A DNA stretch of 32,000 bases from Elusimicrobia bacterium RIFOXYA2_FULL_50_26 (GTDB lineage Bacteria; Elusimicrobiota; Endomicrobiia; Endomicrobiales; XYA2-FULL-47-53). Below, in pieces: positions 1-30,435 of the stretch. The stretch spans positions 1 to 32,000 of the forward strand of contig MGVF01000115.1 of assembly GCA_001800355.1 (NCBI GenBank), given 5' to 3'. The stretch's first letter is position 1; each line of letters opens with the position of its first letter. Made by a program: the position numbers and the translations under genes. A model generated the notes under the pieces. The model was not told the DNA's origin, did no database searches, and was given only the letters and a program-made list of their open reading frames with translations.

Positions 1-4
1 AGAA

Positions 5-433
5 ATGAATAAAAATACAGTGCATTTTGTTGTTTGCTTATTCAGTATAATCGCCTCATCGTATTCCTTTGCTGAAGTGGCCGGTGCGCTTCCTAAATCT
101 CCTGAAACTCTCAGCAGGTACTCTTTTTATAAGGCTGCGGAAAGATTTTCACTTACGTCAGTCAGACCCAAAATTTTTTGCCCTGATGAGGCGGACGAAT
201 CGGTGGCAAAGGTATGTTTTACCATTGATAATCCGAACTTTTCAGAAGTAAGTTCAACAATATATGATATTAACGGCAACGTCGTCAAAGTAAGTTTAAC
301 GGAAGAAGGCACTGAATTATTTTCCTGGGACGGGCGTGACTCCGATAATAACGTCGTTTCCTCTGGCGTATACATATATCAATTGGAAGCTGACGGCAAA
401 GTTGTAAACGGAACAGTTGTAGTTGCTCGCTAA
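5..433 (+). CDS. small secreted protein with C-terminal FlgD-Ig-like / T9SS-CTD-like beta-sandwich
   Basis: ATG at 5. Hydrophobic N-terminal signal (VHFVVCLFSIIASSYSFA). The C-terminus FSWDGRDSDNNVVSSGVYIYQLEADGKVVNGTVVVAR fits the WDGrd..G..v.sGvY.y.l pattern of FlgD Ig-like domains. The stop lies 10 nt before the next start. Confidence 0.6.
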   Translation: MNKNTVHFVVCLFSIIASSYSFAEVAGALPKSPETLSRYSFYKAAERFSLTSVRPKIFCPDEADESVAKVCFTIDNPNFSEVSSTIYDINGNVVKVSLTEEGTELFSWDGRDSDNNVVSSGVYIYQLEADGKVVNGTVVVAR

Positions 434-443
434 AGAGGTAGTC

Positions 444-2015
444 ATGGGCAAATGCAAAAACGCTCTAATAATTGCTGCCTGCGGTATCGTCATTGCAATG
501 AACGCGTATGCCGCTTTTGACCGCCAGCCAGGCGGTGCCAGGCCGCAGAGCCTCGGCGGAGCGTTCGCAGGGCTTGCCGACGGCCCCGATGCCATGTATT
601 TCAACCCCGCCGGCCTCGGACAGTTGAGGCGAATGGAGGTCCAGGGCGGCTACTCGCGTTTATATACAGGCCTCGACGACAACAGCGACCTGGCCGATAG
701 TAATGTATTGTTTGTACTGCCGATTTCCGTCATAAAGAAGGGAAATGACGACACTGGCGGCAATGATGGTGTCATAGGTTTTGGACTGGATGTTTTTGGA
801 TTAGCCAATTATTATACTGAAAGCAGCGCCGGCATTTATTACAGCAAAAACCTTAACCCCAAAACGCTTGTCGGGGCGGGCATAAAATATCTTACCGTGA
901 GTTATGGCACTGATGAGTACACAGCCGTAAACCCGGTGTTCGCGCTTGGTACTTCTAAAAGCGAAATAAGTTTTGATGCCGGTGTTATGATAAAACCAGC
1001 CGAGAGCCTCTCCATGGGGCTTTCAATCCGCGACATTGCAAGCCCGAGCCTGGGCATTAAATACGAAGACAGGATACCGCGTAATATCATACTTGGCGCA
1101 GCATATCACAAGCCCGGGTGGAATATAGCAGGCGACCTTGCTATGGATAGCAATAGTAATATAAAATTCGTCACCGGCGCTGAAAAATGGTTCATGTCGG
1201 ACATGCTCGCTGTGCGCCTTGGGCTTGGCATCGGCAGCAGGAAATACTCCAGGCTTACTACCGGTCTTGGATACGAGGGCGAGAATGCCGTGCTTTCATA
1301 TGCTTTTTACTATCCATTGTCCGGTTTAAACGAAATGTACGGCTCTCACGAGCTTACGGTGGGTTACCGCTTCGGTTCTTCGCAATTTACGAACAAAAAG
1401 ATTGCCGCCCGGCTTTACGGTTCCGTTGTCTCGGATATTGAACGCGGGCTGTATGCCCGTGCATTGTCCGGGTTGGAAAAGGTAAGGCAGCTGTCGCCGG
1501 ATGACTCAGTTTATGAGGCTGTACAGGTAAAATTGTCTCTCGTGGCTGTATATGTTTCTGATTCATCCGGCGAAGAAAAGGATGCGACGGCAATCAGGAA
1601 CGGTGTTAGTAAATATATTATTGAAGATGATGCAAAGGAATGTGTAAAATTGTTGAGGTACGCATATAGTTTGAAGGCTGACAATGAAAAATTAAACCAG
1701 ATGGTTAAGGCCATAGCAAAAGAAAATAACGTAGTTATTGAGGACGCGGCTACAAACTGGAATATGGCAGAGCAAAAGGTGTACCAGGCGCTGGAAAGAA
1801 TCAAGGAAAAGAAATACTATGAGGCTGTCCGCCTGTGCGAGGAAGCGTTATCCCTTGAACCTGATAATGTAACCGCGTATAAACGCCTGGGTTCTGTTTT
1901 CTATTTACTGAAGGATATGGAAAAAGCAAGGAAAAACTGGCTAAAAGCCATTGAACTTGCTCCGGAAGATTCGGATATTCCTCAGATAAGGGAAATCCTG
2001 CAAAAAATACCATAA
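444..2015 (+). CDS. outer-membrane beta-barrel (FadL/TodX/PorV-like N-terminal motif) with C-terminal TPR domain
   Basis: The ATG at 444 is preferred over the TTG at 423: AAAGAGG lies 5 nt upstream. Signal peptide ...AMNAYA|AF. The motif GARPQSLGGAFAGLADGPDAMYFNPAGL is typical of FadL/OMPP1-type barrels. Alternating beta-strand-like sequence runs to about aa 315. The C-terminal part has TPR-like repeats (YYEAVRLCEEALSLEPDNVTAYKRLGSVFYLLKDMEKARKNWLKAIELAP). Confidence 0.6.
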   Translation: MGKCKNALIIAACGIVIAMNAYAAFDRQPGGARPQSLGGAFAGLADGPDAMYFNPAGLGQLRRMEVQGGYSRLYTGLDDNSDLADSNVLFVLPISVIKKGNDDTGGNDGVIGFGLDVFGLANYYTESSAGIYYSKNLNPKTLVGAGIKYLTVSYGTDEYTAVNPVFALGTSKSEISFDAGVMIKPAESLSMGLSIRDIASPSLGIKYEDRIPRNIILGAAYHKPGWNIAGDLAMDSNSNIKFVTGAEKWFMSDMLAVRLGLGIGSRKYSRLTTGLGYEGENAVLSYAFYYPLSGLNEMYGSHELTVGYRFGSSQFTNKKIAARLYGSVVSDIERGLYARALSGLEKVRQLSPDDSVYEAVQVKLSLVAVYVSDSSGEEKDATAIRNGVSKYIIEDDAKECVKLLRYAYSLKADNEKLNQMVKAIAKENNVVIEDAATNWNMAEQKVYQALERIKEKKYYEAVRLCEEALSLEPDNVTAYKRLGSVFYLLKDMEKARKNWLKAIELAPEDSDIPQIREILQKIP

Positions 2016-2036
2016 AAGCCATACCGGAGGTTGTTT

Positions 2037-3101
2037 GTGAAGATACTAATCGTTGAGGACGATCCGGAACTGAGGTTGTATGTAGGCCAGATATTGCGGA
2101 ATGCCGGTTATGATCATGAGTGCGCGGCAACAATCGAAGAATACAGGGCCAGGATCATTAATGGTTGCGATATGGCTCTGCTGGACATTGTGCTTGGCGA
2201 TAATGACGAAGATGGGGTTGAGATTTGCGGCGATATAAAAACAAATTATCCTTCAACAGCAATAATTATAGTTTCGGGGAAGAAGGAAAGCGATTTGAAG
2301 GTAAGGGCGTTGAACGTGGGCGCCGATGATTATATTTCCAAGCCATTCTACGACGATGAATTGTTAAGCAGGATAAGGCGAGTGGCCTTGCGGCGCAATA
2401 TCGTCCTCCCTGATGCGTCTGAACGCATTCGTTTTGACGACAAATCGTCCGTTATCTATATTGATGGCAATAAGATTTCCCTGGATAAAGATGAGTACCT
2501 CATTCTTAAAGTCCTCAATTCCAGAGGCGAGAACGGGGTAAAGTGGGAGCAGCTTCGCGACATAGCCTATGACGGCAGCAACATCGGCAGGGATGAGATT
2601 GTTAAAAAAGTTGATTATTTAAAGGGCAGGCTCGGCAATCTGGCGCAATTGAAAGATAATAACGGTTATTTCAGCATGGTCATAGGCGACAGTAACTGTG
2701 TGCCGGTGAAAAAAAAGAAGCGCGTTCTTGTTATTGACGATGACATGAATGCTCAGGAATTGCTAAGCGGTATTTTTGAAGAGGAATACGAGTGTTTCTC
2801 GGCTTATGACGGCAACGACGGTTTAAGAAGGATTTACGAGGTAAAGCCGGACATGGTTATACTGGACATTAGAATACCAGGTATAAACGGTTATAAACTA
2901 TGCGAGTTGATAAAAAAAATAAATGGCAGCCTGCCGGTTGTTTTCCTTACCGGAAGGTTCGTGGATGCCGGCGATAAATCACTGGGCCTGGATCTGGGCG
3001 CAGATGATTACATAACCAAGGACGTTGATCCAGACGAATTGCTGGCGCGCATCAAAACGATTGTTGCCGCATATGATAACGTAAAAAATACCAGCCGGTA
3101 A
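2037..3101 (+). CDS. response regulator, REC - OmpR/PhoB-type winged helix - REC
   Basis: GTG at 2037, 7 nt after GGAGG. REC1 has EDD...LLDIVLG...IIVSGK...ISKPF. The central IRFDD..VIYIDGNKISLDKDEYLILKVL...VKKVDYLKGRLG matches the Trans_reg_C pattern. REC2 has IDDD...ILDIRIPGINGY...FLTGR...ITKD. Acceptor Asp, Thr/Ser and Lys are present in both receivers. Confidence 0.8.
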   Translation: MKILIVEDDPELRLYVGQILRNAGYDHECAATIEEYRARIINGCDMALLDIVLGDNDEDGVEICGDIKTNYPSTAIIIVSGKKESDLKVRALNVGADDYISKPFYDDELLSRIRRVALRRNIVLPDASERIRFDDKSSVIYIDGNKISLDKDEYLILKVLNSRGENGVKWEQLRDIAYDGSNIGRDEIVKKVDYLKGRLGNLAQLKDNNGYFSMVIGDSNCVPVKKKKRVLVIDDDMNAQELLSGIFEEEYECFSAYDGNDGLRRIYEVKPDMVILDIRIPGINGYKLCELIKKINGSLPVVFLTGRFVDAGDKSLGLDLGADDYITKDVDPDELLARIKTIVAAYDNVKNTSR

Positions 3102-3115
3102 TGGAGTAGAGGCCA

Positions 3116-4846
3116 ATGCTTAACGCCATATATTCATACATGGAAAAGATCAGTATTCGCGCCAAGCTGTTTATAGTGCTGGGGAGCGTGTGTTCCGTTA
3201 CGGTGCTTCTTGGCTCAGTGAGCATAATAAATGTAAGCATCAAGCAATTCAATGAGAATTTTGAGCGGGAGCAGATGCTTGCCTGCGAATACATGGCTAT
3301 GGAAACTGAACATTACATGGCTCTGTTGAACAAAAAAATAGGATTTGTAACGGATATAGGCAGAGTTGGCATAGGTGACAGGCAATCCGTTCAGGCTATA
3401 TTAAACAGGGTTATAACCGGGAATCCGGAGATGCTTGGCGTCTACACGGTTGACGGCGGCGGCAGAATAATAAATAAAGCATACGTTGATAAATCTATTG
3501 CGCCGGACGCGCTGCAAAGCGATGGAACCTACAGAAAGGCGCTAGTTTCAGGACGTGCTGAACTCGGCGCTATTTCAAGGATGGGGAATAAGCCGGTTAT
3601 TGCGATAGCCTGTCCTTTGCCGGGGCGCAAGGGGCTTGTGTACATGTTATTCGGCTTGGACATCCTTGAGGATGTTGTGGGTCGGATTGCAAAAGCCGGC
3701 GGCATGCAGGTTTATGTTATAAATAAGAATGGTGAGGTTTTATTTTCCAGTTCACCTCTAAGCGCGGGCAAGGTTTTCAGGAAATTTGATCTGGCTTTGC
3801 ATAATAAGCAAAGCATGGTTACGGATCCAAACGGCGGCGTGTTGAGGGCTTCTATTAACAAGGGTAAAATAGAAGATTCTTTTGTTGTCATAGGAAGGGA
3901 CGCGGCGGCTGTTTCAATGCCGGTTCGCTTGATGAAGCTGATGACTGTGTTCTGGTTGTTGGTAACTTTTGGGATACTGTACTTGTTATCAATAATATTT
4001 TCAGGCTACCTGCTTACGCCTATTCTTAATCTGGTAAACGGTATGAAAATGGTGGGCGCCGGCAATTTAAATTACAAGGCCAAGGTAAATTCCGGGGATG
4101 AGATCGGGTTCCTCGCTCAAACATTTAATGCCATGGTGGAAGAGCTAAGACATGTGCGTCATGATAACCTGCGTCATAAATGCCTGGCTGCCATAAGGAA
4201 AATGTCGGAAAAAATCGGGTTGCAGGTGCGGAATCCGATGATGACCATCAACATGGCCGCTGCGATGCTGCTGCGTTACAAAGGCAGGGAGCTGAATATA
4301 GATGATCTTAAAAAGTTTACGGCCATAATCAGGAAGGAAGCATCTGTTATAAGCAAGGTGTCGGATAACCTGCTTATTTATTCGAATGAGCGCCCGCCCG
4401 TAAATAACGATATTAGCGTCAGAAATCTTTTTGACGAAATCTCGGCGCTCGCTCAAATGAAATATAACACTGCTATAAAACAGGATTTAAAGGGGGATGT
4501 CCATTTAAAGGGGGATGCATTTGAATTGCGTTGCGCGATGGTAAATATGGTTGACAACGCTATTGATGCGCTTCAGGAAACGGGAGGGGAAGTAATACTC
4601 GGTGCGGAAGAAATTGATGGGAAAGTAAGAATGTGGGTGCTGGACAACGGGCCGGGCATAGGTGAGGCGTTATTGTCACAGATTTTTGAGCCTTTGTTTA
4701 CTACGAAACCGCAAAACATCGGGTTGGGGCTGACCGTTGCAAAAAAAGTGGCCGAGCGCCACCATGGAAAGGTTGAGGTTGAGTCCAAGGTAATGGGCGG
4801 TACGCGATTTGTCATGCAATTTGATAAACCGGGGAGCGCGTCATGA
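3116..4846 (+). CDS. sensor histidine-kinase-like protein (periplasmic Cache-like, TM, HAMP, DHp, HATPase_c) with non-canonical H-box
   Basis: N-terminal TM, a ~250-aa extracytoplasmic region, then a second TM. HAMP is LTPILNLVNGMKMVGAGNLNYKAKVNSGDEIGFLAQTFNAMVEEL. N box VDNAIDAL, G1 DNGPGI, F FEPLFTTK and G2 GLGLTVAKKV are all present. The H-box position reads GLQVRNPM rather than xHExRNPL. Confidence 0.8.
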   Translation: MLNAIYSYMEKISIRAKLFIVLGSVCSVTVLLGSVSIINVSIKQFNENFEREQMLACEYMAMETEHYMALLNKKIGFVTDIGRVGIGDRQSVQAILNRVITGNPEMLGVYTVDGGGRIINKAYVDKSIAPDALQSDGTYRKALVSGRAELGAISRMGNKPVIAIACPLPGRKGLVYMLFGLDILEDVVGRIAKAGGMQVYVINKNGEVLFSSSPLSAGKVFRKFDLALHNKQSMVTDPNGGVLRASINKGKIEDSFVVIGRDAAAVSMPVRLMKLMTVFWLLVTFGILYLLSIIFSGYLLTPILNLVNGMKMVGAGNLNYKAKVNSGDEIGFLAQTFNAMVEELRHVRHDNLRHKCLAAIRKMSEKIGLQVRNPMMTINMAAAMLLRYKGRELNIDDLKKFTAIIRKEASVISKVSDNLLIYSNERPPVNNDISVRNLFDEISALAQMKYNTAIKQDLKGDVHLKGDAFELRCAMVNMVDNAIDALQETGGEVILGAEEIDGKVRMWVLDNGPGIGEALLSQIFEPLFTTKPQNIGLGLTVAKKVAERHHGKVEVESKVMGGTRFVMQFDKPGSAS

Positions 4847-6366
4847 GAACTATTGCTGCGGGCGTTGGGATTTTTTTCACTCTTGCAAGTTCTCTGGCAT
4901 ATAGCGTAGCCGGCACATTTGGAATTGACGAAAAAATTGCCCTGGAGAATTCGATAGCCAAAAGAATTGAAGATGTTACGGTAAGGATGACGGGCGACAG
5001 CAACATCATAGTGTTGGTCAATATAGAACATAATCCCACGATCGAACAGGAAGTAAAAAAAGCCGAGACTCCCGCTGCCGGCCCAGCGGCCGGTGTAAAC
5101 ACAAATAATTACCTGCCGGGTATACCGATGGATGCTTTAGAGACGGAAGTTGTCGGAAATAGCGATGGTTCTTTTACCCAGACGATAAGGTTGCCGGAGT
5201 TCATAAAAACATTGTCGGTTACCATGATATTGAGCGATGAGGTAAGCGATGCGACGTTAAACAGCGTAAGAGAATATATCTCCGGGTTGGTAAAGATTAG
5301 CGAGGTGCGCGGTGACCGCCTGGAAGTCAGGAAAATGACGTTTGTGGAAAACAAACAGGAAAAGATTAACCTTATACGCGATGTCGCCATTACGCAAATG
5401 CCGTGGTTTATTGGTTTGTTCCTGCTGGCGTTTTTCATATTCGGCCCGTTACGCAATTTTATGAAGAACATGATCTCGGCAATAGAGGTTTTCCGTATAC
5501 AGGCGGATACAAGAATAATAAGCCGTTCGGAGATCGGGGTAAAATCCGGCGGCAGGCCGGAAGGCCTCCGTGGCGGGGTCATGGGCGAGATCGGGACAAC
5601 GCAGAATGCCGGCCTTACAGGTGGCGAGGGAATCAGGAGCCTGCCGGAAGGCGGTATGCGGCACTTTGGTTTCATCAATGAAAGCAATATAGGCAGCCTG
5701 CTTTACCTGTTAAAGAATGAGACTCCGGACATGGTTGCCATAGTTTTGACGTATTTGCCCAAGGAATATTCCGGCACAATAATCAATGCGCTTCCGGAAG
5801 CGCTTCGCAAGGATACTCTTAAACAGATGGCTGTTGTAAAGCAATACCATGGCGAGGATATAAGGGTTATCGAGGACCGGCTTAAAGAACGCGTGGATTA
5901 TCTGCTTGGCGGCCCCCAGAATATAGCCGATTTAATCAATGCCTACGAGAAAGATGAACGCGAAAAAGTGCTTAAGGATATAGGCAGGGAGGACCCTGCT
6001 ACCGAGGCCGCAATAAGAAATATGCTTGTTACGGCCGACGACCTGGCAAAACTATCCAAGGAACATCTCTACGAAATTTATAAAGCCGTAGGCACCCGCA
6101 TTTTCGCTGCGGCATTGAGGGGAACTGGTGCGCAGGTGCGCGATTACGTTATGAAAAACCTCACCGAAGGCGCGCGCGATATGTTGCGCCAGGAAATGGA
6201 ATTAATTCCCAGGGATATCTCAGCCGCGCGTATTAACCAGGTGAAAAAAGACCTGATAACCGCGATGAAACGCCTGGAAGAGCAGGGTACCATTAAAATT
6301 CCGCGCGATAGTATAACAGTGGCGTCTGCCACCCCGCCCAATACCGTTCGCAAAAACCCATCCTGA
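4843..6366 (+). CDS. membrane protein: FliF/YscJ-like periplasmic ring motif + TM + Gly-rich linker + FliG middle/C-terminal-like domains
   Basis: The ATG overlaps the kinase stop (ATGA at 4843-4846). N-terminal TM/signal. IKTLSVTMILSDE...ISEVRGDRLEVRKMTF followed by the TM MPWFIGLFLLAFFIFGPL mirrors the end of the FliF periplasmic domain (IKRLSVAVVV...RGDxLxVxxxxF, then TM2). From aa 275 the sequence aligns colinearly with FliG_M and FliG_C (see findings). Confidence 0.6.
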   Translation: MRTIAAGVGIFFTLASSLAYSVAGTFGIDEKIALENSIAKRIEDVTVRMTGDSNIIVLVNIEHNPTIEQEVKKAETPAAGPAAGVNTNNYLPGIPMDALETEVVGNSDGSFTQTIRLPEFIKTLSVTMILSDEVSDATLNSVREYISGLVKISEVRGDRLEVRKMTFVENKQEKINLIRDVAITQMPWFIGLFLLAFFIFGPLRNFMKNMISAIEVFRIQADTRIISRSEIGVKSGGRPEGLRGGVMGEIGTTQNAGLTGGEGIRSLPEGGMRHFGFINESNIGSLLYLLKNETPDMVAIVLTYLPKEYSGTIINALPEALRKDTLKQMAVVKQYHGEDIRVIEDRLKERVDYLLGGPQNIADLINAYEKDEREKVLKDIGREDPATEAAIRNMLVTADDLAKLSKEHLYEIYKAVGTRIFAAALRGTGAQVRDYVMKNLTEGARDMLRQEMELIPRDISAARINQVKKDLITAMKRLEEQGTIKIPRDSITVASATPPNTVRKNPS

Positions 6367-6417
6367 TCCCCCCCAATAAGCTACTTATGGGCAAAAAAGC
6401 TGCAGCTAAAGCTTTTC

Positions 6418-6446
6418 TTGACATATTCCCGAAAGTATGTTAAAAT
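6418..6446 (+). promoter_or_regulatory. sigma70-type promoter, TTGACA-17 nt-TAAAAT
   Basis: TTGACA at 6418-6423, an exactly 17-nt spacer, and TAAAAT at 6441-6446. It lies upstream of the hairpin/tRNA/tig block. Confidence 0.5.
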
Positions 6447-6473
6447 TTTCTATCTTTTCAATGAACCGCAAAC

Positions 6474-6614
6474 TTTCATTAGGCGCGTAGGACAAGGCGA
6501 ACGAGGCCGAGGCTTTTTCGACTAAAAAAGTGAGAGCGTAGCGTTGCCTGCGGTCGAACTTTTTTAGGAAGAAAAAGTCCGGCACCGTTCGACGACTCCA
6601 GCGTCCTTATGAAA
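6474..6614 (+). ncRNA. long imperfect hairpin (~141 nt), candidate structured leader/sRNA or MITE-like palindrome
   Basis: Hand-folded helices: 6474-6481/6607-6614, 6482-6487/6602-6606, 6498-6503/6586-6591, 6506-6519/6571-6583, and 6522-6531/6558-6567 (a 10-bp perfect helix). The apex is 6532-6557. It sits between the promoter and tRNA-Lys. Confidence 0.35.
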
Positions 6615-6631
6615 ATTTACGGATGAATATT

Positions 6632-6704
6632 GCGCCGCTAGCTCAATTGGTAGAGCAGACGACTCTTAATCGTCAGGTTAGAGGTTCGATTCCTCTGCGG
6701 CGCA
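6632..6704 (+). tRNA. tRNA-Lys (anticodon CTT)
   Basis: 73-nt cloverleaf drawn by hand. Acceptor GCGCCGC/GCGGCGC, D arm GCTC-AATTGGTA-GAGC, anticodon arm GACGA-CTCTTAA-TCGTC, T arm AGAGG-TTCGATT-CCTCT, discriminator A. No encoded CCA. Confidence 0.9.
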
Positions 6705-6727
6705 GGCTTTTTACTGTTAACTGTATC

Positions 6728-6809
6728 GCCGGGATGGCGGAACTGGCAGACGCGCCAGACTTAGGATCTGGTGGGGAAACCCTTCGGAGTTCAAATCTCC
6801 GTCCCGGCA
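6728..6809 (+). tRNA. tRNA-Leu (anticodon TAG), class II with long variable arm
   Basis: Acceptor GCCGGGA/TCCCGGC, D arm GCG-GAACTGGCAGA-CGC, anticodon arm CCAGA-CTTAGGA-TCTGG, 13-nt variable arm, T arm CGGAG-TTCAAAT-CTCCG, discriminator A. Confidence 0.85.
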
Positions 6810-6851
6810 TAATCCATAATCTAATCACAATGCGGGCGAAAGGAATAGACT

Positions 6852-8147
6852 GTGCAAATAGAAAAAACCAAGATTGACGTCGTGGATGAAAAAGAATGTG
6901 CGATTGTGTTCGCCGTAGAGGTGCCGGCCGAAGAAGTGCGGCTGGAAACCGAAAATGTGTTCAATGAAATTCAAAAAACTGCCCAGTTGCCGGGTTTTCG
7001 CGTCGGCAAAGCTCCCAGGGAGATGGTCAGGACGAATTATAAAGTTATGGCGCGGGAGAGAGTAATTGAGAATCTTATCAACCGTTCCGTCAGCATCGCG
7101 CTCAGCAGCAAGAGTATTACTCCGGTAACCTATCCGCGGGTCGACAACGTTTCATTTGATTTTGAGAAGCCTTTCAGCTATCGTTTGCACGCTGAAAAAC
7201 ATCCCGAATTCAAAGTGAAGGATTATAAAGGCATACCGGTGAAAAAAGAGATAATGCCGGTTACTGACGAAAAGGTGAAGGAAAAACTTAACGGTTTGAG
7301 AGAGCGCAATGCAAGGCTTGTCGAATCCGGCGCTGAAACCGTGGGCGCTTCCCATTTCGTCCTGGTTGATTATGAGGCTTTTTCCGAAGGGCAATCTGTT
7401 GAAGAGCTGAAAACATCCGGCCAGATGATTGACATGTCCGCCGCCCAGGGGTTTGCCGGGTTTAACGAAGGTTTGATGGGAGCCAAAAAAAATGAAGAGC
7501 GCGAGATAAAAGTGCGGCTGCCCAGGGAATACCCTGACAGTAAACTGGCCGAAAAAGAGGTTGTTTTCAAGGTAAAAGTAAAAGAGATAAAGGAAAAATC
7601 GTTGCCCGCATTGGACGATGAATTCGCCAGGGACATTGGCATTGGCAGTATTGCCGAACTCGAATCGAGTTTCAAAAGTTCAATGGAAGATGAAGAAAAA
7701 CGGCGGCAGTCTGCGGAAGTCGAGAAACAGATAATCGAAGAATTGCTCAAACGAAATGAGTTCGCCGTGCCGGAGTCTCTCATCGAAGAACAGTATAATC
7801 ACCTTATGGCGCGCATGGCTGAATATTTCCGCCGGCAGCACGTCCACGAATCAGTCTGGCAGAAGAACAGCGAACAGATGAAAGAAAAATATCGCAAACA
7901 GGCCGAGAGCGATGTGCGAATTTCATACATTCTAAACGCGGTGGCCTCGGAACAGAAAATTGATGCTACCGACGAAGATATGAAAGCGGAACGGGAAAAT
8001 ATGTATAAAACAAACCCGTCAAGGGAGGGGGAAATTGATAAGTATTTCGGGGAAAACAAGGAGCGTATACAATCTCAGTTAAGAGAGAAAAAAATATTCG
8101 ACTTCCTTATTTCGGAAGCAAAAATCAAGGAAGAAATCAAAAAATAG
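6852..8147 (+). CDS. tig: trigger factor
   Basis: 431 aa with a GTG start. The N-terminal ribosome-binding signature region is [12 protein letters not shown]. Length and the tig-clpP-clpX-lon synteny fit. Confidence 0.9.
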
Positions 8148-23715: not shown

Positions 23716-26043
23716 TTACAATCCTAGCGTTTGCTGAATAATTTCGTAACGTTCGTTGGCTTCGAGAGCATTCCACTGGTCTATGCTCATCTGGTTTAAT
23801 ATGTCATTCTTTATGAGGTCGCTCATCTCCGAGAAGTTTTTCTTGTAGAACTCCATGTCCTGGAGGCCTTCTTTTGCGTCTGCCACAGCCTTCTCGCCCG
23901 ATATGAAGCCACCGCCATAAGAGACGTTAACCTTTATGGATTTCGATCCGCTAACGTCGGACGATATGTCTCCCATGAACATTACAGACTCGCCAATTCC
24001 GGTAGTTGCAAGCGAAGCTGCAATCTCGGGCGCGTCCGTAACGTCCACGAACATAACGCCGTCCATATCCTGCATTCCCTTGCCGTCTAAAATATCAATG
24101 GTGTCAACGCTCAGTTTGGCATAGGTGCGTCCGTCAATTTGTTCGAGGCCTGAGAATGTGCCAATCACTATCGGATCCGCGCTTACGCAGTTGTATCCCT
24201 GAACTATCGAGATCTTTGTGCCAACAGCGCTTAGCTGATCATTGATGTCCGAGGGTAGCGTGTTGCCGGTTCCGACGTACTTGGATAATATAGTCCTTAG
24301 AGAGCTAACCCTGGCTTTTAATTCAGTACGTACTGACGATAAGGCAGCCGCCGCTTTATCATCTGAAGCCACGGTTGCCGCAGAACCCTGCTCGTAGGTT
24401 ATGGAGATATCCGCCGACTCCTTGTTTATGAAAAGATTTTCAAGTTTCGCAAGGCTAAGCGTATCAATCTTGCTTGAAAGCTCGTCAAGCGCGGCAATCC
24501 ACTCTTCAGCAGAACTCGTTTCTGATACTTTGTTCTCCAATTCTGCATTAATCGCCGATACGTCAAATGCTTTTTCCACTAATTTATTCGCTATTTCGCC
24601 TTCCAGTTGAGCGGATGGGTCAAGGCTGGCACAGTTGACTTTTCCTGCCTGCGCGCCGTAAGCATATAGCATCACGTCAACCACAAACTTATTGCCGGAG
24701 CCGGTTATGCCAAGCTGATTGGAAACACTGCCATTCTGCGTGTCTGCATAAGTAAGCGTTAATACCGGTCCGTTGCCTATGCTTCTTTGAAGGGCAAAGC
24801 TTTTAAAATATTTTACATCTTCATCGCCTGTATTCCACCCCATGACAAGCTTTAGCGTCTCATTGTTCATATCTTTAATCTGATTCGCATAAAGCTGTAT
24901 GGACTGTAGCCATGCAGGTTTGGTATAGCTTGGATTATTTATTATTTTGGTGTATTCCTTGCGCATGGTATCGGCGTTCAGGTCATTCGTCCCGGTTCCA
25001 AGCTTGCCGCTTCCTGACACTACCGCTCTGCCCCTGGTGTCAAAAACGGTTGTAGACCAGCCGCCTTCAGCAGCAAAGACTTCCATGGCATTTATCGTGC
25101 CGTTAAGGTGATAATTTCTTGCCGAAACCTTTATTCCCAGGTCATTGGTAACGAAACCCAGTTTTCCTGCCTGGTAATGAGATGTTTCCTTTGTTGCATA
25201 GTCGTATGTGCTTTGGAGTGATCCGTCATTCCGGTAGTTAAAACTTGTGTCGTCGCCGACTACTTTGCCGCTTGAGTCAAGGAGTACCGAAGATTTAGCT
25301 TTACCGATCAGCTGTCCCTGACTATAATAAATCACCCTGGCTTTTTGATCCTGGTAATAGACATCCGCGCCGCTATCGTCTTTATTCCAGCCGCTCTTAT
25401 TTTCACTGGACAGCTTGTCGTACTGTTCTTTTGTTATCATTTTAAGCTGTTTTGTATCTGTATATTCCAGCAAGCCATCTCTGCCGTAGTTGTATTCTTC
25501 CACGACAGCGCCATCGTGAGCATAAGTCTTAACGTTTTTTCCATTCTCTACCAATGTTACACCGGCGCCGCCTTGTGAGAAATTTACCGATATGGAATTA
25601 TTCGCCTTTGAAATATGCACTATGGCGGTGTTAATCCATGCGGCTTTGGTAGCCTCTTTCTCTATGCTTGCCTTGCCGGAATCGGACATTTTCACGCCCA
25701 GGGAACCCTGTAGCTGTGAATCGCTTATGCCCCATTTATTAAGATATTTCTCAAGGCCACCCGAGGCTGCGACGTCATCGTTATGATTTACCATTATGTT
25801 AAGCCATGTGCCGTCAGCATCCACGGTGCCGCGGTATTTGCCGCGGTCGAAAATTTGCAGGTTGCCGTTAGCATCTTTAACGGAAGCCAGCATCCCTGAT
25901 TTGTAGTTGAATACGGTGCTGATCCTGCTGCTTAATGCGCTGAAAGGATCAGCGGCGGCAAACAAGCCGGCAGGCGCAACAAAAAGTAAGAGGGTTGATA
26001 CAAGCCATGCTGCGATCCGTTGAAGCGTTTGTTTGGTAAACAT
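23716..26043 (-). CDS. large secreted hypothetical protein with degenerate YD-like repeats in the N-terminal half
   Basis: ATG at 26043, 8 nt after AAGGAGG. Signal peptide ...FVAPAGLFAAA. YD-like segments EEYNYGRDGLLEYTD and SFNYRNDGSLQSTYDYATKETSHY. The C-terminal ~350 aa match no family I recognise. Confidence 0.7.
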   Translation of the reverse strand: MFTKQTLQRIAAWLVSTLLLFVAPAGLFAAADPFSALSSRISTVFNYKSGMLASVKDANGNLQIFDRGKYRGTVDADGTWLNIMVNHNDDVAASGGLEKYLNKWGISDSQLQGSLGVKMSDSGKASIEKEATKAAWINTAIVHISKANNSISVNFSQGGAGVTLVENGKNVKTYAHDGAVVEEYNYGRDGLLEYTDTKQLKMITKEQYDKLSSENKSGWNKDDSGADVYYQDQKARVIYYSQGQLIGKAKSSVLLDSSGKVVGDDTSFNYRNDGSLQSTYDYATKETSHYQAGKLGFVTNDLGIKVSARNYHLNGTINAMEVFAAEGGWSTTVFDTRGRAVVSGSGKLGTGTNDLNADTMRKEYTKIINNPSYTKPAWLQSIQLYANQIKDMNNETLKLVMGWNTGDEDVKYFKSFALQRSIGNGPVLTLTYADTQNGSVSNQLGITGSGNKFVVDVMLYAYGAQAGKVNCASLDPSAQLEGEIANKLVEKAFDVSAINAELENKVSETSSAEEWIAALDELSSKIDTLSLAKLENLFINKESADISITYEQGSAATVASDDKAAAALSSVRTELKARVSSLRTILSKYVGTGNTLPSDINDQLSAVGTKISIVQGYNCVSADPIVIGTFSGLEQIDGRTYAKLSVDTIDILDGKGMQDMDGVMFVDVTDAPEIAASLATTGIGESVMFMGDISSDVSGSKSIKVNVSYGGGFISGEKAVADAKEGLQDMEFYKKNFSEMSDLIKNDILNQMSIDQWNALEANERYEIIQQTLGL

Positions 26044-26153
26044 TGGATTTACCTCCTTGTTAGTTATATTTCTCATTTCGTCCGATGTCTTGCTATTGTA
26101 ATAACTGTCGCTTATGAAATATGTATGGAAAAAAAATGTAATAATTGTGAAAT

Positions 26154-27317
26154 TTATCTTATTGTTTTTAAATCATTAAAGTATTGTTTATACCATTCCT
26201 TAATCATTTCACCTGTAGGTTTGGTGGAATCACTTAGTTGTATCTTTATGTCATCGCGTTGGTACTGGTAAATTTGCACTGTATTATCATGCTCATTGTA
26301 GAATCCCATCAGCCTGCCGGTGTAATATATCCACTCTTTAATTTTGTACTCATTGAATACAGTATAAAGCGGTTTGGAATTTATGTCATAATATGTCGTC
26401 TCGTTTGTTCTCCTGTCAAAGGTATACGCCAGTTTTACTCCGTCATAGCAATAATCCTTTACAACCCCGCCTTCACTTGACGTGGTATATACAGGTTTGC
26501 CGTTTTTATAATATGTAATGTCGCCGTACGTCGGTCCCATGTTTGATATATCTACCGATTTTTCAAGTATAGTATTGCCACTGGCATCTTTTTTGTAGCT
26601 ATATTCGGTTATTTTGTCTCCCTTGTAATTTTCAGTGTGGCTAAGGTTGCCGTTTTTGTTGAAATAACTTTTATTTCCATATACGTCTTCTTTATATTCC
26701 ATTCTGCCCTGGTTGTCGTAAGTATACTGCGCTATCTTGTTGCCTTCGAAATCTTCGTCGTAAAGGGCCTGGCCTGTTGCGTTAAAAATAGTTTTGGTCA
26801 TTGTAAGTTCGTCAAGCACATGTTCCACGTTCTTGCCGTACTTGTCATATTTATAACTTTTTACTTTGTTGCCTTCATAATCGTATTCATTCATGACTTT
26901 GCCGCCCATCCCCAGTTCCTGGTGGCCGATTTTTTCACCGGCGGCTGTCTTAACTATCACCCTGTTTGTGCCTTTTTCTCTTTCCGATATTTCTATAACG
27001 TTACCGTCAACGTCTTTCTTAATGGTCTTGCCTGACAGGGAGAATTCCTGCGAGCCGTCAACGTTCACTTTTACCGTAAGCCCGCCGCCGGGCGTGAAGT
27101 AAAGGCGGTTGCCGTACTTGTCCCTTGCCGCTATGGGGCGGTTGGGGAGGATGTCCACCATGTAATTGGGCTTGCCGAAATCCTGTTGTTCTACCGGCCT
27201 CAATTGATCTTGCGGGCCGAAATTAACACGGGGGGGTTCCAACGCTTCCATAAAACCGAAAGCGGTGTTATTGAGGAAGGCCAGCGTGGTAATAATTACG
27301 GGAATTGTTTTTTTCAT
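26154..27317 (-). CDS. secreted YD/Rhs-repeat protein (no Rhs core or toxin domain)
   Basis: Signal peptide MKKTIPVIITTLAFLNNTAFG. Repeats include YDYEGNKVKSYKYDKYGKNV, QYTYDNQGRMEYKEDVYGNKSYFNKNGNL and EYSYKKDASGNTI. Very AT-rich coding sequence. Confidence 0.7.
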   Translation of the reverse strand: MKKTIPVIITTLAFLNNTAFGFMEALEPPRVNFGPQDQLRPVEQQDFGKPNYMVDILPNRPIAARDKYGNRLYFTPGGGLTVKVNVDGSQEFSLSGKTIKKDVDGNVIEISEREKGTNRVIVKTAAGEKIGHQELGMGGKVMNEYDYEGNKVKSYKYDKYGKNVEHVLDELTMTKTIFNATGQALYDEDFEGNKIAQYTYDNQGRMEYKEDVYGNKSYFNKNGNLSHTENYKGDKITEYSYKKDASGNTILEKSVDISNMGPTYGDITYYKNGKPVYTTSSEGGVVKDYCYDGVKLAYTFDRRTNETTYYDINSKPLYTVFNEYKIKEWIYYTGRLMGFYNEHDNTVQIYQYQRDDIKIQLSDSTKPTGEMIKEWYKQYFNDLKTIR

Positions 27318-27778: not shown

Positions 27779-27845
27779 AAGCGTGCCTTAATTTGTGCAT
27801 TTGCCGTTTTGGCGAATGTTCTTTTTTTGTATTAAGGAGGTCCCT

Positions 27846-29969
27846 GTGCGGGCTATTTCTTCCTCGATTGCAATAATGTTCTGTTTTATTTTCTTTGCTT
27901 CACCTGCCTTTTCAACGTCCGTCGCCATACATTCACCTGTCGAACTTTTACTGGTTAATCCTTCGCCGCAGGCGACCGCCATGGGCGGATGCAGCGTTGC
28001 ATTAACGGGTGCCGAATCATCAGCTGTCGGCAATCCGGCATCCCTGTCGACTATTTATAATAACCGGTTGTCATTAAACTATGCTTTCTGGCCGGACGAG
28101 GTTAAGTATATGTTTGCGGGCATGGATATACCTCTTCAAACAGGCGCCTTGGGCGTTTCCATGTCCATGCTTTCCTATGGAAGAAACGCTGCCGGTTTTG
28201 ATGACGCCGGCAATGCGTATAACCTGGAATCATCTAACGAAACGGCGGCAATGTTAAGCTACTCCATCCCGGTAATAATTAAATCGCCTCTCGACTTGAA
28301 AATCGGGCTTGTAGGAATAAATGCGAAATTTATAAACAAAAAACTTGCGGATTATTCCGAAGAATCTCCGGGCATGGATGCCGGCGCGATATATTTCGTG
28401 CCGTTCATAAGGAATTTAAACATTGGTGTAGTAGCCAGGAATTTTGGAGCCGTGCCGTCGTTGCAATCGTTGGGCGCGGGGATCTCTTATTCCAGTCCTG
28501 AATTTGAGCAGCTTATTCTATCGGCCGATGGTAATTTTCCTTCGGAGGGGCAATCTTCATTATCGTGCGGCCTTAGAATGTCCCCGGCCAGGACGGTGAA
28601 ACTTTACGCCGGATGGCAGGATATAAATGCGGATTCGGGCGCAGGCCTCAGGGTAGGCATGGGCATAGATATTGGCGATCTGTCATTTAATTATGCCATA
28701 GCTCCTTTGAAGGAAGCCGGGCCAATGCAGTCCGCAGGCATTCAGTTGGCATTGGGAGCGCTGGCAGATCCAAGGATAGCCGCGGATTACCATCTTAAAA
28801 AGCATTTTTCCCAGGCCAGGGACCTTTTTAACCGTAAGAATTACGTCAAGTCGCGTTTTAAACTTGATCAGATACTGTCCCTTTATCCGGAGTACATGCC
28901 TGCTCTCGAATTGAAGGATAAAATCGGCCAGCTTGCGCAGGATAGCGGTTATCGCAAAGAAATAGAACTTTACCATACGCGTGCGGAATTGGCTTTCAGC
29001 AGGAATGATTTGCTGGTTGCCAGTAAGTATTACACGCTGATTCTAAACATGGACGATGAAGACGTTCTGGCGAAGAACGGGATAGAGAAAGTTAAGAATG
29101 TCATGAATGAAATACAATTGGAGAAAGTCAGGGAAGAAAACCGCGAAATGCTGGAGCGGTTATGGAAAATTGCCGTTGGGTTTTATAACAGGGGCGAATA
29201 TATAAAGTCCAAGGAAAGGTTTCAGGAAATACTTGTTACTGACCCAAAGCATGAGGCGACGCTGAAGTATATTTCAGATATTGATAACCAGATTGCAAGC
29301 ATAACCGCTACCCAGGTTAATGAAATGTACACCATGGGAACGGAGCTTTTTAAGAACGGCAGGTATGATGATGCCATACGCTATTTCGAGGCGGTCGTCA
29401 TTGCCGCGCCGCACCGTATAGACGCCGAGGATTTTATAGCGCGGTGCAAGGAAAAAATACAGGAAGGCGAAGAAAAAACGCGTTCCGACCGTCTTGCACG
29501 TGAACAGGACCGCATGAGAAATGAAGTTGAGACCGCCTATAACCGTGCGCTTAAACATTTTGAAAATGGGGATTACGTTCTGGCGCTTGAATGGTTTAAC
29601 AAAACCGAGGATATAGCCTCGAGATATGAATTTAAGCAATACCGCGATGAATCCAGGAGATACGTTGATACAATCAAGGCGGCCCTCGCCGAAAAGCATT
29701 ACAAGCTGGGCTTTAATTTTTATCAGCAGAATCGTTTCGAGAGCGCTTTTTCAGAATATCGGAAATCTCTGCAGTACAATCCCGAGAACCCTTCCGTAAA
29801 AGTGGAGCTGGATAAGCTGGCGCGCAGCCTTGCCCAGCAGTATTATGAACGGGGTATGAGCCATTATACCCAGGGGCAGATGGATAAGGCCAGGGAGTAT
29901 TTCAGAAAGTCTCTTTCCTACAAGCCGGACAAGGAAGAACCTTTGCGCGCCCTGGAGCGCATGAAGTAA
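27846..29969 (+). CDS. outer-membrane beta-barrel (FadL/PorV-like N-terminal motif) with long C-terminal TPR array; paralogous architecture to 444-2015
   Basis: GTG at 27846, 5 nt after AAGGAGG. Signal peptide ...FFASPAFS|T. Barrel motif PSPQATAMGGCSVALTGAESSAVGNPASL. Beta-rich to about aa 300, then at least six TPR-like repeats, for example GRYDDAIRYFEAVVIAAPHRIDA, NRFESAFSEYRKSLQYNPENP and GQMDKAREYFRKSLSYKPDKEE. Confidence 0.65.
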   Translation: MRAISSSIAIMFCFIFFASPAFSTSVAIHSPVELLLVNPSPQATAMGGCSVALTGAESSAVGNPASLSTIYNNRLSLNYAFWPDEVKYMFAGMDIPLQTGALGVSMSMLSYGRNAAGFDDAGNAYNLESSNETAAMLSYSIPVIIKSPLDLKIGLVGINAKFINKKLADYSEESPGMDAGAIYFVPFIRNLNIGVVARNFGAVPSLQSLGAGISYSSPEFEQLILSADGNFPSEGQSSLSCGLRMSPARTVKLYAGWQDINADSGAGLRVGMGIDIGDLSFNYAIAPLKEAGPMQSAGIQLALGALADPRIAADYHLKKHFSQARDLFNRKNYVKSRFKLDQILSLYPEYMPALELKDKIGQLAQDSGYRKEIELYHTRAELAFSRNDLLVASKYYTLILNMDDEDVLAKNGIEKVKNVMNEIQLEKVREENREMLERLWKIAVGFYNRGEYIKSKERFQEILVTDPKHEATLKYISDIDNQIASITATQVNEMYTMGTELFKNGRYDDAIRYFEAVVIAAPHRIDAEDFIARCKEKIQEGEEKTRSDRLAREQDRMRNEVETAYNRALKHFENGDYVLALEWFNKTEDIASRYEFKQYRDESRRYVDTIKAALAEKHYKLGFNFYQQNRFESAFSEYRKSLQYNPENPSVKVELDKLARSLAQQYYERGMSHYTQGQMDKAREYFRKSLSYKPDKEEPLRALERMK

Positions 29970-30057: not shown

Positions 30058-30435
30058 GTGAACGAAATGGCGACAATTCTTATCGTCGAAGATGAAGAGT
30101 GGATCGCAAGCTTGATGAGCGAGAGGCTTCAAAAGGCAGGGCATCATACCGCCACTGCCATGACGATAAGCGAGGGAATGGCAAAACTGAAGGAGTTGAA
30201 GCCCGACGTTGTAACGCTTGATATAATTATGCCGGACTGTTCCGGGCTTGAGATGTTGCGAAGCATAAGGAAAGATCCTGAAACGTTTGCCATACCCGTG
30301 GTCGTTGTATCTTCTACTGATGAATCGGAACGGGCTTTTTCACTTGGCGCTGATGGTTATGTGCAGAAGCCGGTAAATTTTTCAAAATTGCTTGATGCGG
30401 TGAAACATTTCGCAGTTCTTGATAAAGTGTCATGA
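30058..30435 (+). CDS. single-domain CheY-like response regulator receiver
   Basis: ILIVEDEE, acceptor VVTLDIIMPDCSG, VVVVSST, VQKPV. The start is GTG 30058 or ATG 30067; this is not resolved. Confidence 0.85.
   Translation: MNEMATILIVEDEEWIASLMSERLQKAGHHTATAMTISEGMAKLKELKPDVVTLDIIMPDCSGLEMLRSIRKDPETFAIPVVVVSSTDESERAFSLGADGYVQKPVNFSKLLDAVKHFAVLDKVS

Follow-up and report, generated by a model that had tools for sequence, protein, structure and literature searches.

For FliG and the MotAB stators acting on it, no role other than the flagellar one has been established, and the closest exception is the stator-less FliF-FliG(M) protein of chlamydiae. Here we examine a five-gene operon (g1 to g5) at the start of the first 32,000 nucleotides (hereafter the window) of contig MGVF01000115.1 of Elusimicrobia bacterium RIFOXYA2_FULL_50_26 (assembly GCA_001800355.1). 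Its last gene, g5, appears to encode a natural fusion of FliF and FliG parts located in the inner membrane, and it follows genes for a small secreted protein with a C-terminal domain (CTD) of the kind known from type IX secretion systems (T9SS) (g1), an outer-membrane barrel carrying TPR repeats (g2) and two signalling proteins (g3 and g4). Flagellar-type stator genes lie beside the same genes in relatives, so that these genes probably belong to an ion-driven envelope machine that has not been described. On balance we favour the reading that such a machine, widespread in Elusimicrobiota, pairs a flagellar-type rotor with stators outside any flagellum, and that the operon supplies its rotor and its outer-membrane half.

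Fusions of FliF with FliG have been reported before. The Chlamydiaceae, a non-flagellated lineage, carry a natural FliF-FliG fusion that is thought to work with the injectisome (Bergeron 2016; PMC4768692). Like g5, it joins a shortened FliF, with two transmembrane segments and a reduced ring-building motif (RBM) region, to a FliG-like cytoplasmic domain, and the chlamydial NCBIfam model PRK05934 weakly matches the FliG_M region of g5 (E 1.6e-5). Unlike g5, the chlamydial protein is about 330 residues long, contains RBM2 and one further RBM, has a FliG_M-like domain only, with neither FliG_C nor a torque helix, and is not known to have MotAB, a PorV-like barrel or a CTD protein as partners. In Salmonella and Vibrio, engineered or spontaneous FliF-FliG fusions can assemble MS-ring-like rings (PDB 8z4d/8z4g; PMC11481574). 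The fusion chain of 8z4d matches g5 in sequence and in fold; unlike g5, these proteins are laboratory constructs made of full-length FliF and FliG that function within a complete flagellum.

Other envelope systems resemble the outer-membrane side of the operon. The Agl-Glt machinery of Myxococcus contains a proton-driven inner-membrane stator with one A and two different B subunits (AglR with AglQ/AglS), and periplasmic TPR proteins connect this stator to barrels in the outer membrane and to an adhesin on the surface. By this description it shares with the g5-family clusters an A subunit with two different B subunits, TPR, barrels and a surface protein, but it is TolQR/ExbBD-like, lacks a FliG-like rotor and is made of components with no sequence relationship to those of the clusters. 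Treponema pallidum possesses FadL-like outer-membrane proteins with C-terminal TPR extensions (relatives of UPF0164). As described, they resemble g2 in having a FadL/PorV-like barrel of 14 strands with a TPR-like extension behind it in the periplasm, and Pfam UPF0164 weakly matches a g2 homologue; we know of no link between the T. pallidum proteins and a FliG-like rotor or stators.

In T9SS, PorV and PorP-like proteins bind CTD cargo (PMC5562754, PMC9143113). The g5-family clusters resemble T9SS and Bacteroidota gliding (PorV, PorP/SprF, SprB) in that a 14-strand barrel gene adjoins a gene for a CTD-ending, often giant adhesin-like protein, an ion-driven inner-membrane motor of the 5:2 type accompanies them (GldLM/PorLM in T9SS), and two-component regulators are attached (compare PorXY). 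They differ in that the Elusimicrobial clusters would use a MotAB stator on a FliG ring instead of GldLM/PorLM, that their barrel has its own TPR array, that g2 stays under the curated PorV and PorP cutoffs, that the host lies outside Bacteroidota, and that SprA/Sov, PorK/N, PorU and PorZ were not seen in the flanks.

As to the host, Mies et al. found the flagellar machinery missing from all Elusimicrobiota genomes and described the isolates as non-motile (PMC11257099). Uzun et al. reported that most free-living members carry numerous motAB, flbD and fliG homologues without flagellar structural genes, called their role 'enigmatic', and found a complete flagellar set in few genomes only (10.1101/2022.07.08.499144). 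A survey of MotAB evolution mentions neither Elusimicrobia nor a non-flagellar FliG partner (PMC12505986). In the literature we found no description of the fusion architecture or of its linkage with barrel-TPR and CTD proteins. The core energy-converting parts are those of a known machine, and orphan genes had been noticed earlier; it is the output module and the fusion rotor that are undescribed. The initial annotation knew of no described system with this gene set; orphan motAB, flbD and fliG genes had been noted in passing, with neither the architecture nor the partner genes described (10.1101/2022.07.08.499144).

The g5 fusion and the stator genes of related loci

Profile searches and an AlphaFold2 (AF2) model, built from a 74-sequence alignment with a pLDDT of 81.7, indicate that g5 is a natural fusion composed of a transmembrane segment, a periplasmic domain like the third ring-building motif (RBM3) of FliF, a second transmembrane segment, FliG_M and FliG_C (Table 1). 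The FliG part is clear. Pfam gave 52.8 bits for FliG_M (cutoff 25) and 66.8 bits for FliG_C (cutoff 23.3), the FliG MC structure of Thermotoga maritima (PDB 1lkv) matched with E 1e-23, and the top PDB fold matches of the model in Foldseek were FliG (E 2.5e-10). The hinge glycines G356 and G357 are invariant in an 18-sequence alignment and at least 90% conserved in the 74-sequence alignment. Against the fliG equivalog TIGR00207, g5 scored 85.6 bits (cutoff 226.7).

In the periplasmic domain the modelled order of elements is alpha-beta-beta-alpha-beta (helix 28-50, strands 56-63 and 121-130, helix 136-150, strand 159-164), and Foldseek matched it to about 15 FliF RBM3/S-ring structures (E 7e-3 to 2e-2, TMt ~0.5). 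The Pfam family YscJ_FliF_C is clear in the g5 homologue of locus L020 (E at most 1e-5) and weak in that of L009. A low-confidence insertion (residues 72-111) bears the family-invariant motif LPG[IV]P; L91, P92, G93, R156, G157 and D158 are conserved in this domain, and F198, F200, G201 and P202 are invariant in the second transmembrane segment. A Gly-rich linker, disordered in the model, leads from there to FliG_M.

Several parts of the flagellar proteins are missing from g5. The lone Pfam signal for FliG_N (E 0.02) overlaps the M domain, and the covalent fusion substitutes for the usual non-covalent link between the FliF C-terminus and FliG_N. At the position of the FliM-binding motif EHPQR, as aligned with T. 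maritima FliG, g5 reads ETPD...Q. Across the family, the six commonest residues at the EHPQR His position are S, P, T, K, D and E, and those at the Arg position are E, A, N, S, Q and F, so that His is missing from the first list and Arg from the second. The periplasmic region, about 140 residues long, forms a single domain and leaves out RBM1 and RBM2. These two motifs of FliF are the SctJ-homology region, which houses the export gate.

A word-indexed search with g5 returned 17 relatives, and an HMMER scan of 1.84 billion representatives gave at least 150 g5-family clusters at 50% identity that align nearly end to end, with E below 1e-63. All named members are Elusimicrobia or Elusimicrobiota; a search of GTDB with the closer family alignment found a single representative, Elusimicrobia bacterium RIFOXYA2_FULL_47_53 (MGVE01). 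A further 80 loci were then obtained from metagenomes, and a survey of 105 loci (numbered with the prefix L) grouped them into 42 lineages at 70% identity; in the counts that follow, the denominators are the lineages whose contigs extend far enough to judge.

The rotor gene, as we call the g5 homologue, has recurrent neighbours. MotA is encoded within 10 kb of it in 25 of 36 lineages, and immediately downstream in 18; a first MotB (MotB1) is found nearby in 21/32 and a second (MotB2) in 15/29. The barrel-TPR gene lies directly upstream in 21 of the 33 lineages, and a CTD-ending protein is encoded upstream in 16/31. A g4-like kinase gene is close by in 15 of 23, and single-domain receiver (REC) proteins are frequent neighbours. 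The usual order is CTD protein, barrel-TPR, rotor, MotA, MotB1, MotB2, kinase; a minimal cluster, L018, consists of rotor, MotA, MotB, MotB and kinase. The CTD protein is either giant or small, and where it is small a second large cargo and a PorP-like barrel are encoded further upstream. Genes for the flagellar export gate, rod, hook, FliM/N or flagellin were not found in the Pfam-annotated flanks of about 20 related loci, SprA/Sov, PorK/N and PorL/M were not seen in the 10-kb flanks of any locus, and neither PorU nor PorZ appeared in the flanks.

Some loci are organised differently. L046, L053 and L059/L060 carry two fusion genes in a row, of which the second is extended by TPRs at the C-terminus; upstream lies a REC (and kinase) gene, and no stator gene is within reach. 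TPR-fused rotors were also seen in L011, L013, L041-43, L066, L083 and L096.

The neighbouring MotA proteins are of the flagellar type. They matched the PomA, MotP and MotA models of NCBIfam with E 1e-53 to 1e-70, below the equivalog cutoffs, and a PDB structure of flagellar MotA with E 1e-48, and they did not match ExbB/TolQ. The MotB proteins match MotB_plug and OmpA in Pfam, and FlbD is encoded at some loci. The channel Asp is present in 35/35 MotB1 sequences; in MotB2 it is present in 17 of 28, with N, T or A in 10, which suggests a heteromeric pair of B subunits in some lineages. When one neighbouring MotA served as query, 962 relatives were retrieved, of which nearly all the named ones were Elusimicrobial or Endomicrobial and one was labelled 'bacterium'. 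By sequence, the stators form a clade of their own, so far confined, among named matches, to Elusimicrobial metagenome-assembled genomes (MAGs).

Residues of the rotor-stator interface were compared across the g5 family. The equivalent of FliG K264 (Escherichia coli) is K or R in 59/76 sequences, that of D288 is E or Q in nearly all, and that of D289 is E in 59/76; an Arg stands two residues past the R281 equivalent in 53/76. On the stator side, the equivalent of MotA R90 is R or K in 39/41, and that of E98 is E or Q; in the E. coli MotA reference sequence R90 and E98 stand at the expected positions. MotA proteins with Q at the E98 position pair mostly with rotors reading 'EGAR', and those with E mostly with '[VAP]A.R', a pattern that fits a co-evolving interface but is confounded by phylogeny.

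Compared with the flagellar motor core, g5 and its relatives have in common a predicted FliF RBM3-like domain between two transmembrane segments, FliG MC with its Gly-Gly hinge and a putative acidic torque helix, and, in related loci, PomA/MotA-type stators with MotB plug, channel Asp and OmpA-like anchor, with FlbD in some. They differ in being built on one polypeptide that omits RBM1/RBM2, FliG_N and EHPQR, in the FliM/N, export gate, rod, hook and filament genes missing from their neighbourhoods, in the two MotB paralogues of related loci, in having an outer-membrane barrel-TPR protein and a CTD-tagged protein as neighbours, and in belonging to a phylum reported to be flagella-less.

These differences bear on the possibility that the source genome is flagellated and g5 just its fliF/fliG, or that g5 acts on a true flagellum as an accessory brake or clutch by titrating its stators. 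Some databases do label family members 'flagellar motor switch protein FliG', and a few Elusimicrobiota genomes reportedly hold full flagellar sets (10.1101/2022.07.08.499144). Nevertheless, the absence of FliG_N, EHPQR and FliF RBM1/RBM2, flanks devoid of flagellar structural genes at some 20 loci, and stators in a clade of their own make this explanation very improbable. The initial annotation had judged that the operon is not flagellar, and nothing in the window or in these flanks contradicts it. It had further proposed an uncharacterised envelope-spanning machine, rotor-like or secretion-related and governed by a phosphorelay; that proposal gains support from significant FliG, FliF-RBM3 and PorV/FadL matches and from the co-occurrence of the genes across dozens of lineages, and its rotor part is much strengthened by the motA-motB-motB genes of relatives. 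Its domain calls were all reproduced by profile and fold searches, the FliF part weakly.

Outer-membrane and signalling proteins of the operon

The 523-residue g2 protein has a signal peptide, a 14-strand barrel of the PorV/FadL type and a C-terminal TPR array, and is predicted to reside in the outer membrane with the TPR array in the periplasm. NCBIfam PorV/PorQ matched over the whole profile with E 1e-11 (45 bits, cutoff 90), and PorP/SprF with E 4e-8 (32.9 bits, cutoff 90.55). A profile of 23 g2-family members matched the PorV chain 6h3i_F of the PDB with E 2e-18. The AF2 model, built from an alignment of database homologues (pLDDT 81.5), has 14 strands and then 11 helices; PorV 6h3i_F and 8gl6_F are the chains on which it superposes most closely (TMt 0.62-0.66, the highest, 0.66, being 6h3i_F), and TbuX and FadL are matched with E ~5e-10. 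The homology of the barrel to PorV is clear from these profile and model comparisons. The TPR array (Pfam TPR_1 and TPR_2, E 1e-10 to 1e-11) is foreign to both the PorV/PorQ and the PorP/SprF families. BLAST showed full-length homology between g2 and the gene lying directly upstream of the rotor in distant loci, and the closest named relative of g2 is from RIFOXYB2_FULL_49_7. A lipoprotein reading of g2, based on IAAC near the N-terminus, was considered less likely than cleavage by signal peptidase I after a family-conserved ...YA motif, as read from the alignment.

In the g1 protein a Sec signal peptide leads through a short linker into a beta-sandwich of the T9SS-type CTD/FlgD-Ig-like kind, and there is no passenger domain. 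The protein matched Pfam FlgD_ig above threshold (E 1e-8) and the NCBIfam T9SS type-A sorting domain TIGR04183 over residues 75-140 (25.1 bits, cutoff 23); Por_Secre_tail and CHU_C of Pfam were below threshold. BLAST related its domain to the C-terminal ends of giant proteins encoded at L006, L009 and L007; a cargo of 3315 residues or more in the sister locus L105 shares, over its last 98 residues, 53% identity with residues 45-142 of g1. An assignment of g1 as FlgD itself was rejected, as the FlgD equivalogs match the Ig part alone, at ~20-29 bits against cutoffs of 230-264.

In g3 a REC domain is followed by a divergent middle region like an OmpR-type winged helix-turn-helix (wHTH) and by a second REC, the latter being atypical for OmpR/PhoB-type regulators. 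Pfam Response_reg was found twice (E 1e-48), and on reading the translation both acceptor Asp and both conserved Lys residues are present. The initial annotation of g3 as a dual-receiver OmpR-type regulator thus holds for the two REC domains. Its wHTH part is less firm: scanned alone, the middle region matched nothing in Pfam, Trans_reg_C included, and the assignment comes from phmmer alignments to full-length OmpR-family BasR and BaeR, which extend through the wHTH region to residues 199-203.

The architecture of g4 is transmembrane segment, dCache-like domain, transmembrane segment, HAMP, DHp and HATPase. Pfam matches were firm for HAMP (2e-14, 54 bits) and HATPase_c (5e-20, 72 bits), under the cutoff for dCache_1 (34 bits, cutoff 45) and weak for HisKA (19 bits). 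BLAST aligned g4 over its full length (32% over 565 residues) with the kinase adjoining the FliG-like gene in L004. The H-box, which is GHE[IV].[ND]P in homologues, reads KIGLQVRNP in g4, with Leu in place of the phospho-acceptor His. The same Leu occurs in the L015 lineage, which is 85% identical, and the His is kept in L001, L004 and L006. The gene is still under purifying selection (dN/dS, the ratio of nonsynonymous to synonymous substitution rates, 0.08), so that g4 is read as a conserved pseudokinase, and the cautious wording 'kinase-like' of the initial annotation was appropriate.

The frequency of g4-like kinases beside rotor genes, their retention in the minimal cluster L018 and the common single-domain REC neighbours could also mean that the rotor-stator pair is a sensor, in which load passed on to the ring from the surface protein by way of the barrel-TPR protein would alter stator engagement or ion flow, and the kinase and REC proteins would report this as a surface or mechanical signal. 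Flagellar stators are known load sensors. On the other hand, the kinase has a periplasmic Cache-like domain of its own, suggesting ordinary ligand sensing. Sensing and actuation are moreover compatible with each other. As an explanation in place of actuation, we regard sensing as rather improbable.

The window operon as a derived variant

A neighbour-joining tree places the window clade in a nested position among lineages in which the rotor gene comes after the stator genes (L004, L007, L026); in L004 the order is REC, MotA, MotB1, MotB2, kinase, rotor. The contigs of L105, at its end, and L007, at its start, come from one sample and share a 19-nt in-frame overlap inside motA. The joined cluster encodes the cargo of at least 3315 residues, a barrel-TPR protein (48% identical to g2), MotA, MotB1, MotB2 and a rotor (42-44% identical to g5), and it occupies the exact position of g1-g2-g3-g4-g5 in the window. 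From the nested position in the tree and the joined cluster we conclude that the window type is derived: the stator genes are gone from the operon, the cargo has been cut to a bare CTD, and the kinase His was lost in the sub-clade of the window and L015. As the operon has no stators and g4 no His, both the stators and a true kinase for the window copy probably come from genes elsewhere. A MotA match, P0250 (its source profile like that of P0003), was considered as the stator of the window lineage and discarded, because it is part of another cluster, itself complete, at a polA-rho locus.

Between the window and L015, dN/dS is 0.068-0.082 for all five genes, at dS ~0.9-1.8, compared with 0.098 for the housekeeping gene tig; FliG_C is as conserved as the rest of g5 (0.076). 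These low values indicate that the genes are maintained by selection. They argue strongly against a decaying, functionless remnant of an ancestral flagellar motor, an idea that might be suggested by a phylum reported flagella-less in which a few genomes hold complete sets (PMC11257099; 10.1101/2022.07.08.499144), and by a window copy reduced to a bare CTD, with no stator genes and no kinase His. All five genes are intact at dN/dS 0.07-0.08 and dS ~1, the family comprises 150 or more diverged clusters, its fusion architecture and non-flagellar partners are conserved, and some contigs (L046, L053, L059) carry family genes in tandem. We therefore strongly disfavour a remnant and find it barely credible.

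The favoured rotor-stator machine might work as follows. Subunits of g5 would form an inner-membrane ring, as FliF RBM3 does, and peptidoglycan-anchored MotA/MotB1(/MotB2) units would push on the FliG_C torque helix using ion flow. The periplasmic collar of the ring would couple to the TPR array of the barrel protein. The PorV-like barrel of the latter would hold the surface protein encoded next to it by its CTD, in the way of PorV and PorP in type IX secretion. By force or rotation the machine could then export, anchor or move this dedicated surface protein, while the kinase and REC proteins would switch the machine or its genes on and off. For the window copy, stators and a true kinase would have to come from outside the operon.

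Several observations weigh against this machine. There is no stator gene in the 32-kb window, nor within 10 kb in the nearest lineages, L001 and L015, and g4 as read from its H-box would be incapable of autophosphorylation in the usual way. The N-terminal match of g5 to FliF is weak (Foldseek E ~1e-2; Pfam YscJ_FliF_C E 0.026), and no family member has a basic residue at the FliG R281 equivalent (G in 50, A in 22), in addition to the phylogenetic confounding of the interface pairs. Ring formation and the TPR-collar, CTD-barrel and FliG_C-MotA contacts are predictions from homology and gene adjacency. No SprA/Sov-type translocon was seen in any flank, so the route of the CTD protein across the outer membrane is unexplained, and cultured Elusimicrobiota are non-motile. 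As regards the survey, a single motif (F[LI]FGP...) served to retrieve the loci, so that the sample is biased; most of them are untyped metagenome contigs with no taxonomic label, and components were called with custom HMMs for each and a simple open reading frame (ORF) caller.

The missing stators also suggest that g5 of the window clade could be a static inner-membrane scaffold, independent of stators, that links g4/g3 to the barrel-TPR and CTD proteins, with the FliG domains acting as interaction modules, like the related MgtE N-domain, and no rotation. The absence of motA and motB within 10 kb in the window, L001 and L015 lineages speaks for such a scaffold, and the ATGA overlap that translationally couples g4 and g5, the kinase-rotor adjacency found also in L004 and L025, the change of the kinase into a pseudokinase and a weak Pfam match of g5 to MgtE_N (E 1e-4) are in line with it. 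Set against these, the clade is nested among lineages in which the rotor gene directly follows motA-motB-motB, as the tree and the L105/L007 join indicate; the torque-helix motif NLTEGARDMLRQEMELIP remains close to that of stator-linked relatives; FliG_C is conserved like the rest of g5; and the numerous motAB copies reported in free-living Elusimicrobiota could supply stators in trans (10.1101/2022.07.08.499144). We consider the scaffold unlikely and retain the rotor-stator machine.

A fuller version of the favoured reading, which we hold somewhat more tentatively and at slightly under even chances, is that Elusimicrobiota carry an undescribed envelope-spanning rotary machine with a FliF-RBM3::FliG ring, MotA/MotB/MotB' stators, no type III export or axial structure, and an output made of a barrel-TPR protein and a CTD protein (often 2000-3500 residues), of which the window would hold a stator-less, cargo-less, pseudokinase-bearing derivative. 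If so, a flagellar rotor and its stators can operate as a module in their own right, which would either descend from the flagellar motor in pared-down form or be related to the precursor of that motor, and the latter would bear directly on how the flagellum was assembled in evolution. A phylum reported to be flagella-less in any case keeps many diverged FliF/FliG fusions next to flagellar-type stators, a type-IX-like barrel and giant surface proteins, and this would give a concrete hypothesis for the 'enigmatic' motAB and fliG genes of Elusimicrobiota, including flagella-less magnetotactic members. Were the mechanism correct, it would be a new route for delivering ion-motive force to the cell surface, a compact and tractable minimal rotor in which one protein replaces FliF, FliG, FliM and FliN, and a test case for a torque generator that exists or evolves without a type III export apparatus.

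Organisation of the locus

The window starts four bases before g1, and the five ORFs follow one another on the + strand with no intervening gene (Table 1). Gene boundaries were taken from direct reading of the junction sequences. This agrees with the five-gene, one-strand operon of the initial annotation, with its junctions of 10, 21 and 14 nt and ATGA at 4843-4846, and so does its end at a tRNA promoter.

Table 1. Coordinates of the operon, its predicted domains and the adjoining elements (positions in the window, except for the last row)
Feature	Position	Strand	Remarks
g1	5-433	+	142 residues
CTD-like beta-sandwich of g1	176-433	+	about residues 58-142; domain coordinates from Pfam/NCBIfam
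g2	444-2015	+	most likely start ATG 444; ribosome-binding site AGAGG 435-439; 10-nt gap after g1
Beta-barrel part of g2	636-1370	+	residues 65-309; DSSP strands of the AF2 model, PorV profile match
TPR/helical-repeat part of g2	1383-2006	+	residues 314-521; Pfam TPR_1 and TPR_2, model helices
g3	2037-3101	+	GTG 2037, 7 nt past GGAGG; 21-nt gap; alternative start TTG 2031
g4	3116-4846	+	ATG start; 14-nt gap after g3
Leu codon TTG at the phospho-acceptor His position of g4	4220-4222	+	H-box comparison with homologues
g5	4843-6366	+	507 residues; start overlaps the g4 stop in ATGA 4843-4846
N-terminal hydrophobic segment of g5	4852-4908	+	residues 4-22, first transmembrane segment or signal peptide; hydropathy, model helix 2-19
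Periplasmic ring-building-motif-like domain of g5	4924-5334	+	residues 28-164; model, fold matches
Second transmembrane segment of g5	5383-5463	+	residues 181-207; hydropathy, invariant F-x-F-G-P
FliG middle domain of g5	5689-5898	+	Pfam residues 285-351; T. maritima FliG alignment
Gly-Gly hinge and FliG_C of g5	5908-6300	+	hinge residues 356-357; Pfam FliG_C residues 379-486
Torque-helix equivalent of g5, NLTEGARDMLRQEMELIP	6157-6210	+	residues 439-456; T. maritima FliG alignment
Sigma-70-like promoter	6418-6446	+	TTGACA-17-TAAAAT, 11/12 consensus positions, TG extension
tRNA-Lys	6631-6705		downstream of the promoter
tRNA-Leu	6728-6809		downstream of the promoter
MotB paralogue examples	L004 7597-8250, L007 821-1489, L018 11470-12156		related loci

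The promoter is the strongest sigma-70-like site within the first 7 kb. It belongs to the tRNA-Lys/tRNA-Leu unit, outside the system, and marks the downstream boundary of the operon. A scan of positions 1-7000 with Rfam found the two tRNAs and nothing else; tig, clpP, clpX and lon come after them. The order from g1 to g5 through the tRNAs, tig, clpP and clpX to lon is kept in L015-17 (~85% amino acid identity) and in L001-3 (~62%), and with g1-g5 thus preserved in two other lineages the arrangement is conserved and no chance juxtaposition. The 50 nt around the promoter (6413-6462, +) are 100% identical in L015, L016, L017 and L021; the flanking genes have dS ~1.

Upstream, a CHASE4-HisKA-HATPase kinase with an intact H-box is encoded immediately before the g1 homologue in L015 (2272-4089) and L016 (3323-5140). 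The operon may therefore exceed five genes, as the window begins just past the position of this kinase.

Between the promoter and tRNA-Lys, 178 nt (6453-6630, +) fold into a single long hairpin (-74.2 kcal/mol, z -6.7), which has no Rfam match and is not conserved in L015, where a different long palindrome was seen by eye at the same position.

The rest of the window contains no genes for flagellin, FliM/N or the flagellar rod, hook and export gate. Further along it, another PorV-like barrel protein, of 724 residues (27795-29969, +), matched the barrel-TPR profile over positions 9-370 and has a longer TPR array. A CheY-like single-domain REC protein (30058-30435, +; Pfam E 5e-25) directly follows it, and no FliG-like gene adjoins this pair within the window. 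Two genes for large secreted-looking proteins of 786 (23716-26076, -) and 387 residues (26154-27317, -) precede them, with no Pfam match for either; the 387-residue protein is rich in Y-D/N-x-x-G repeats, which by eye recall YD/RHS repeats.

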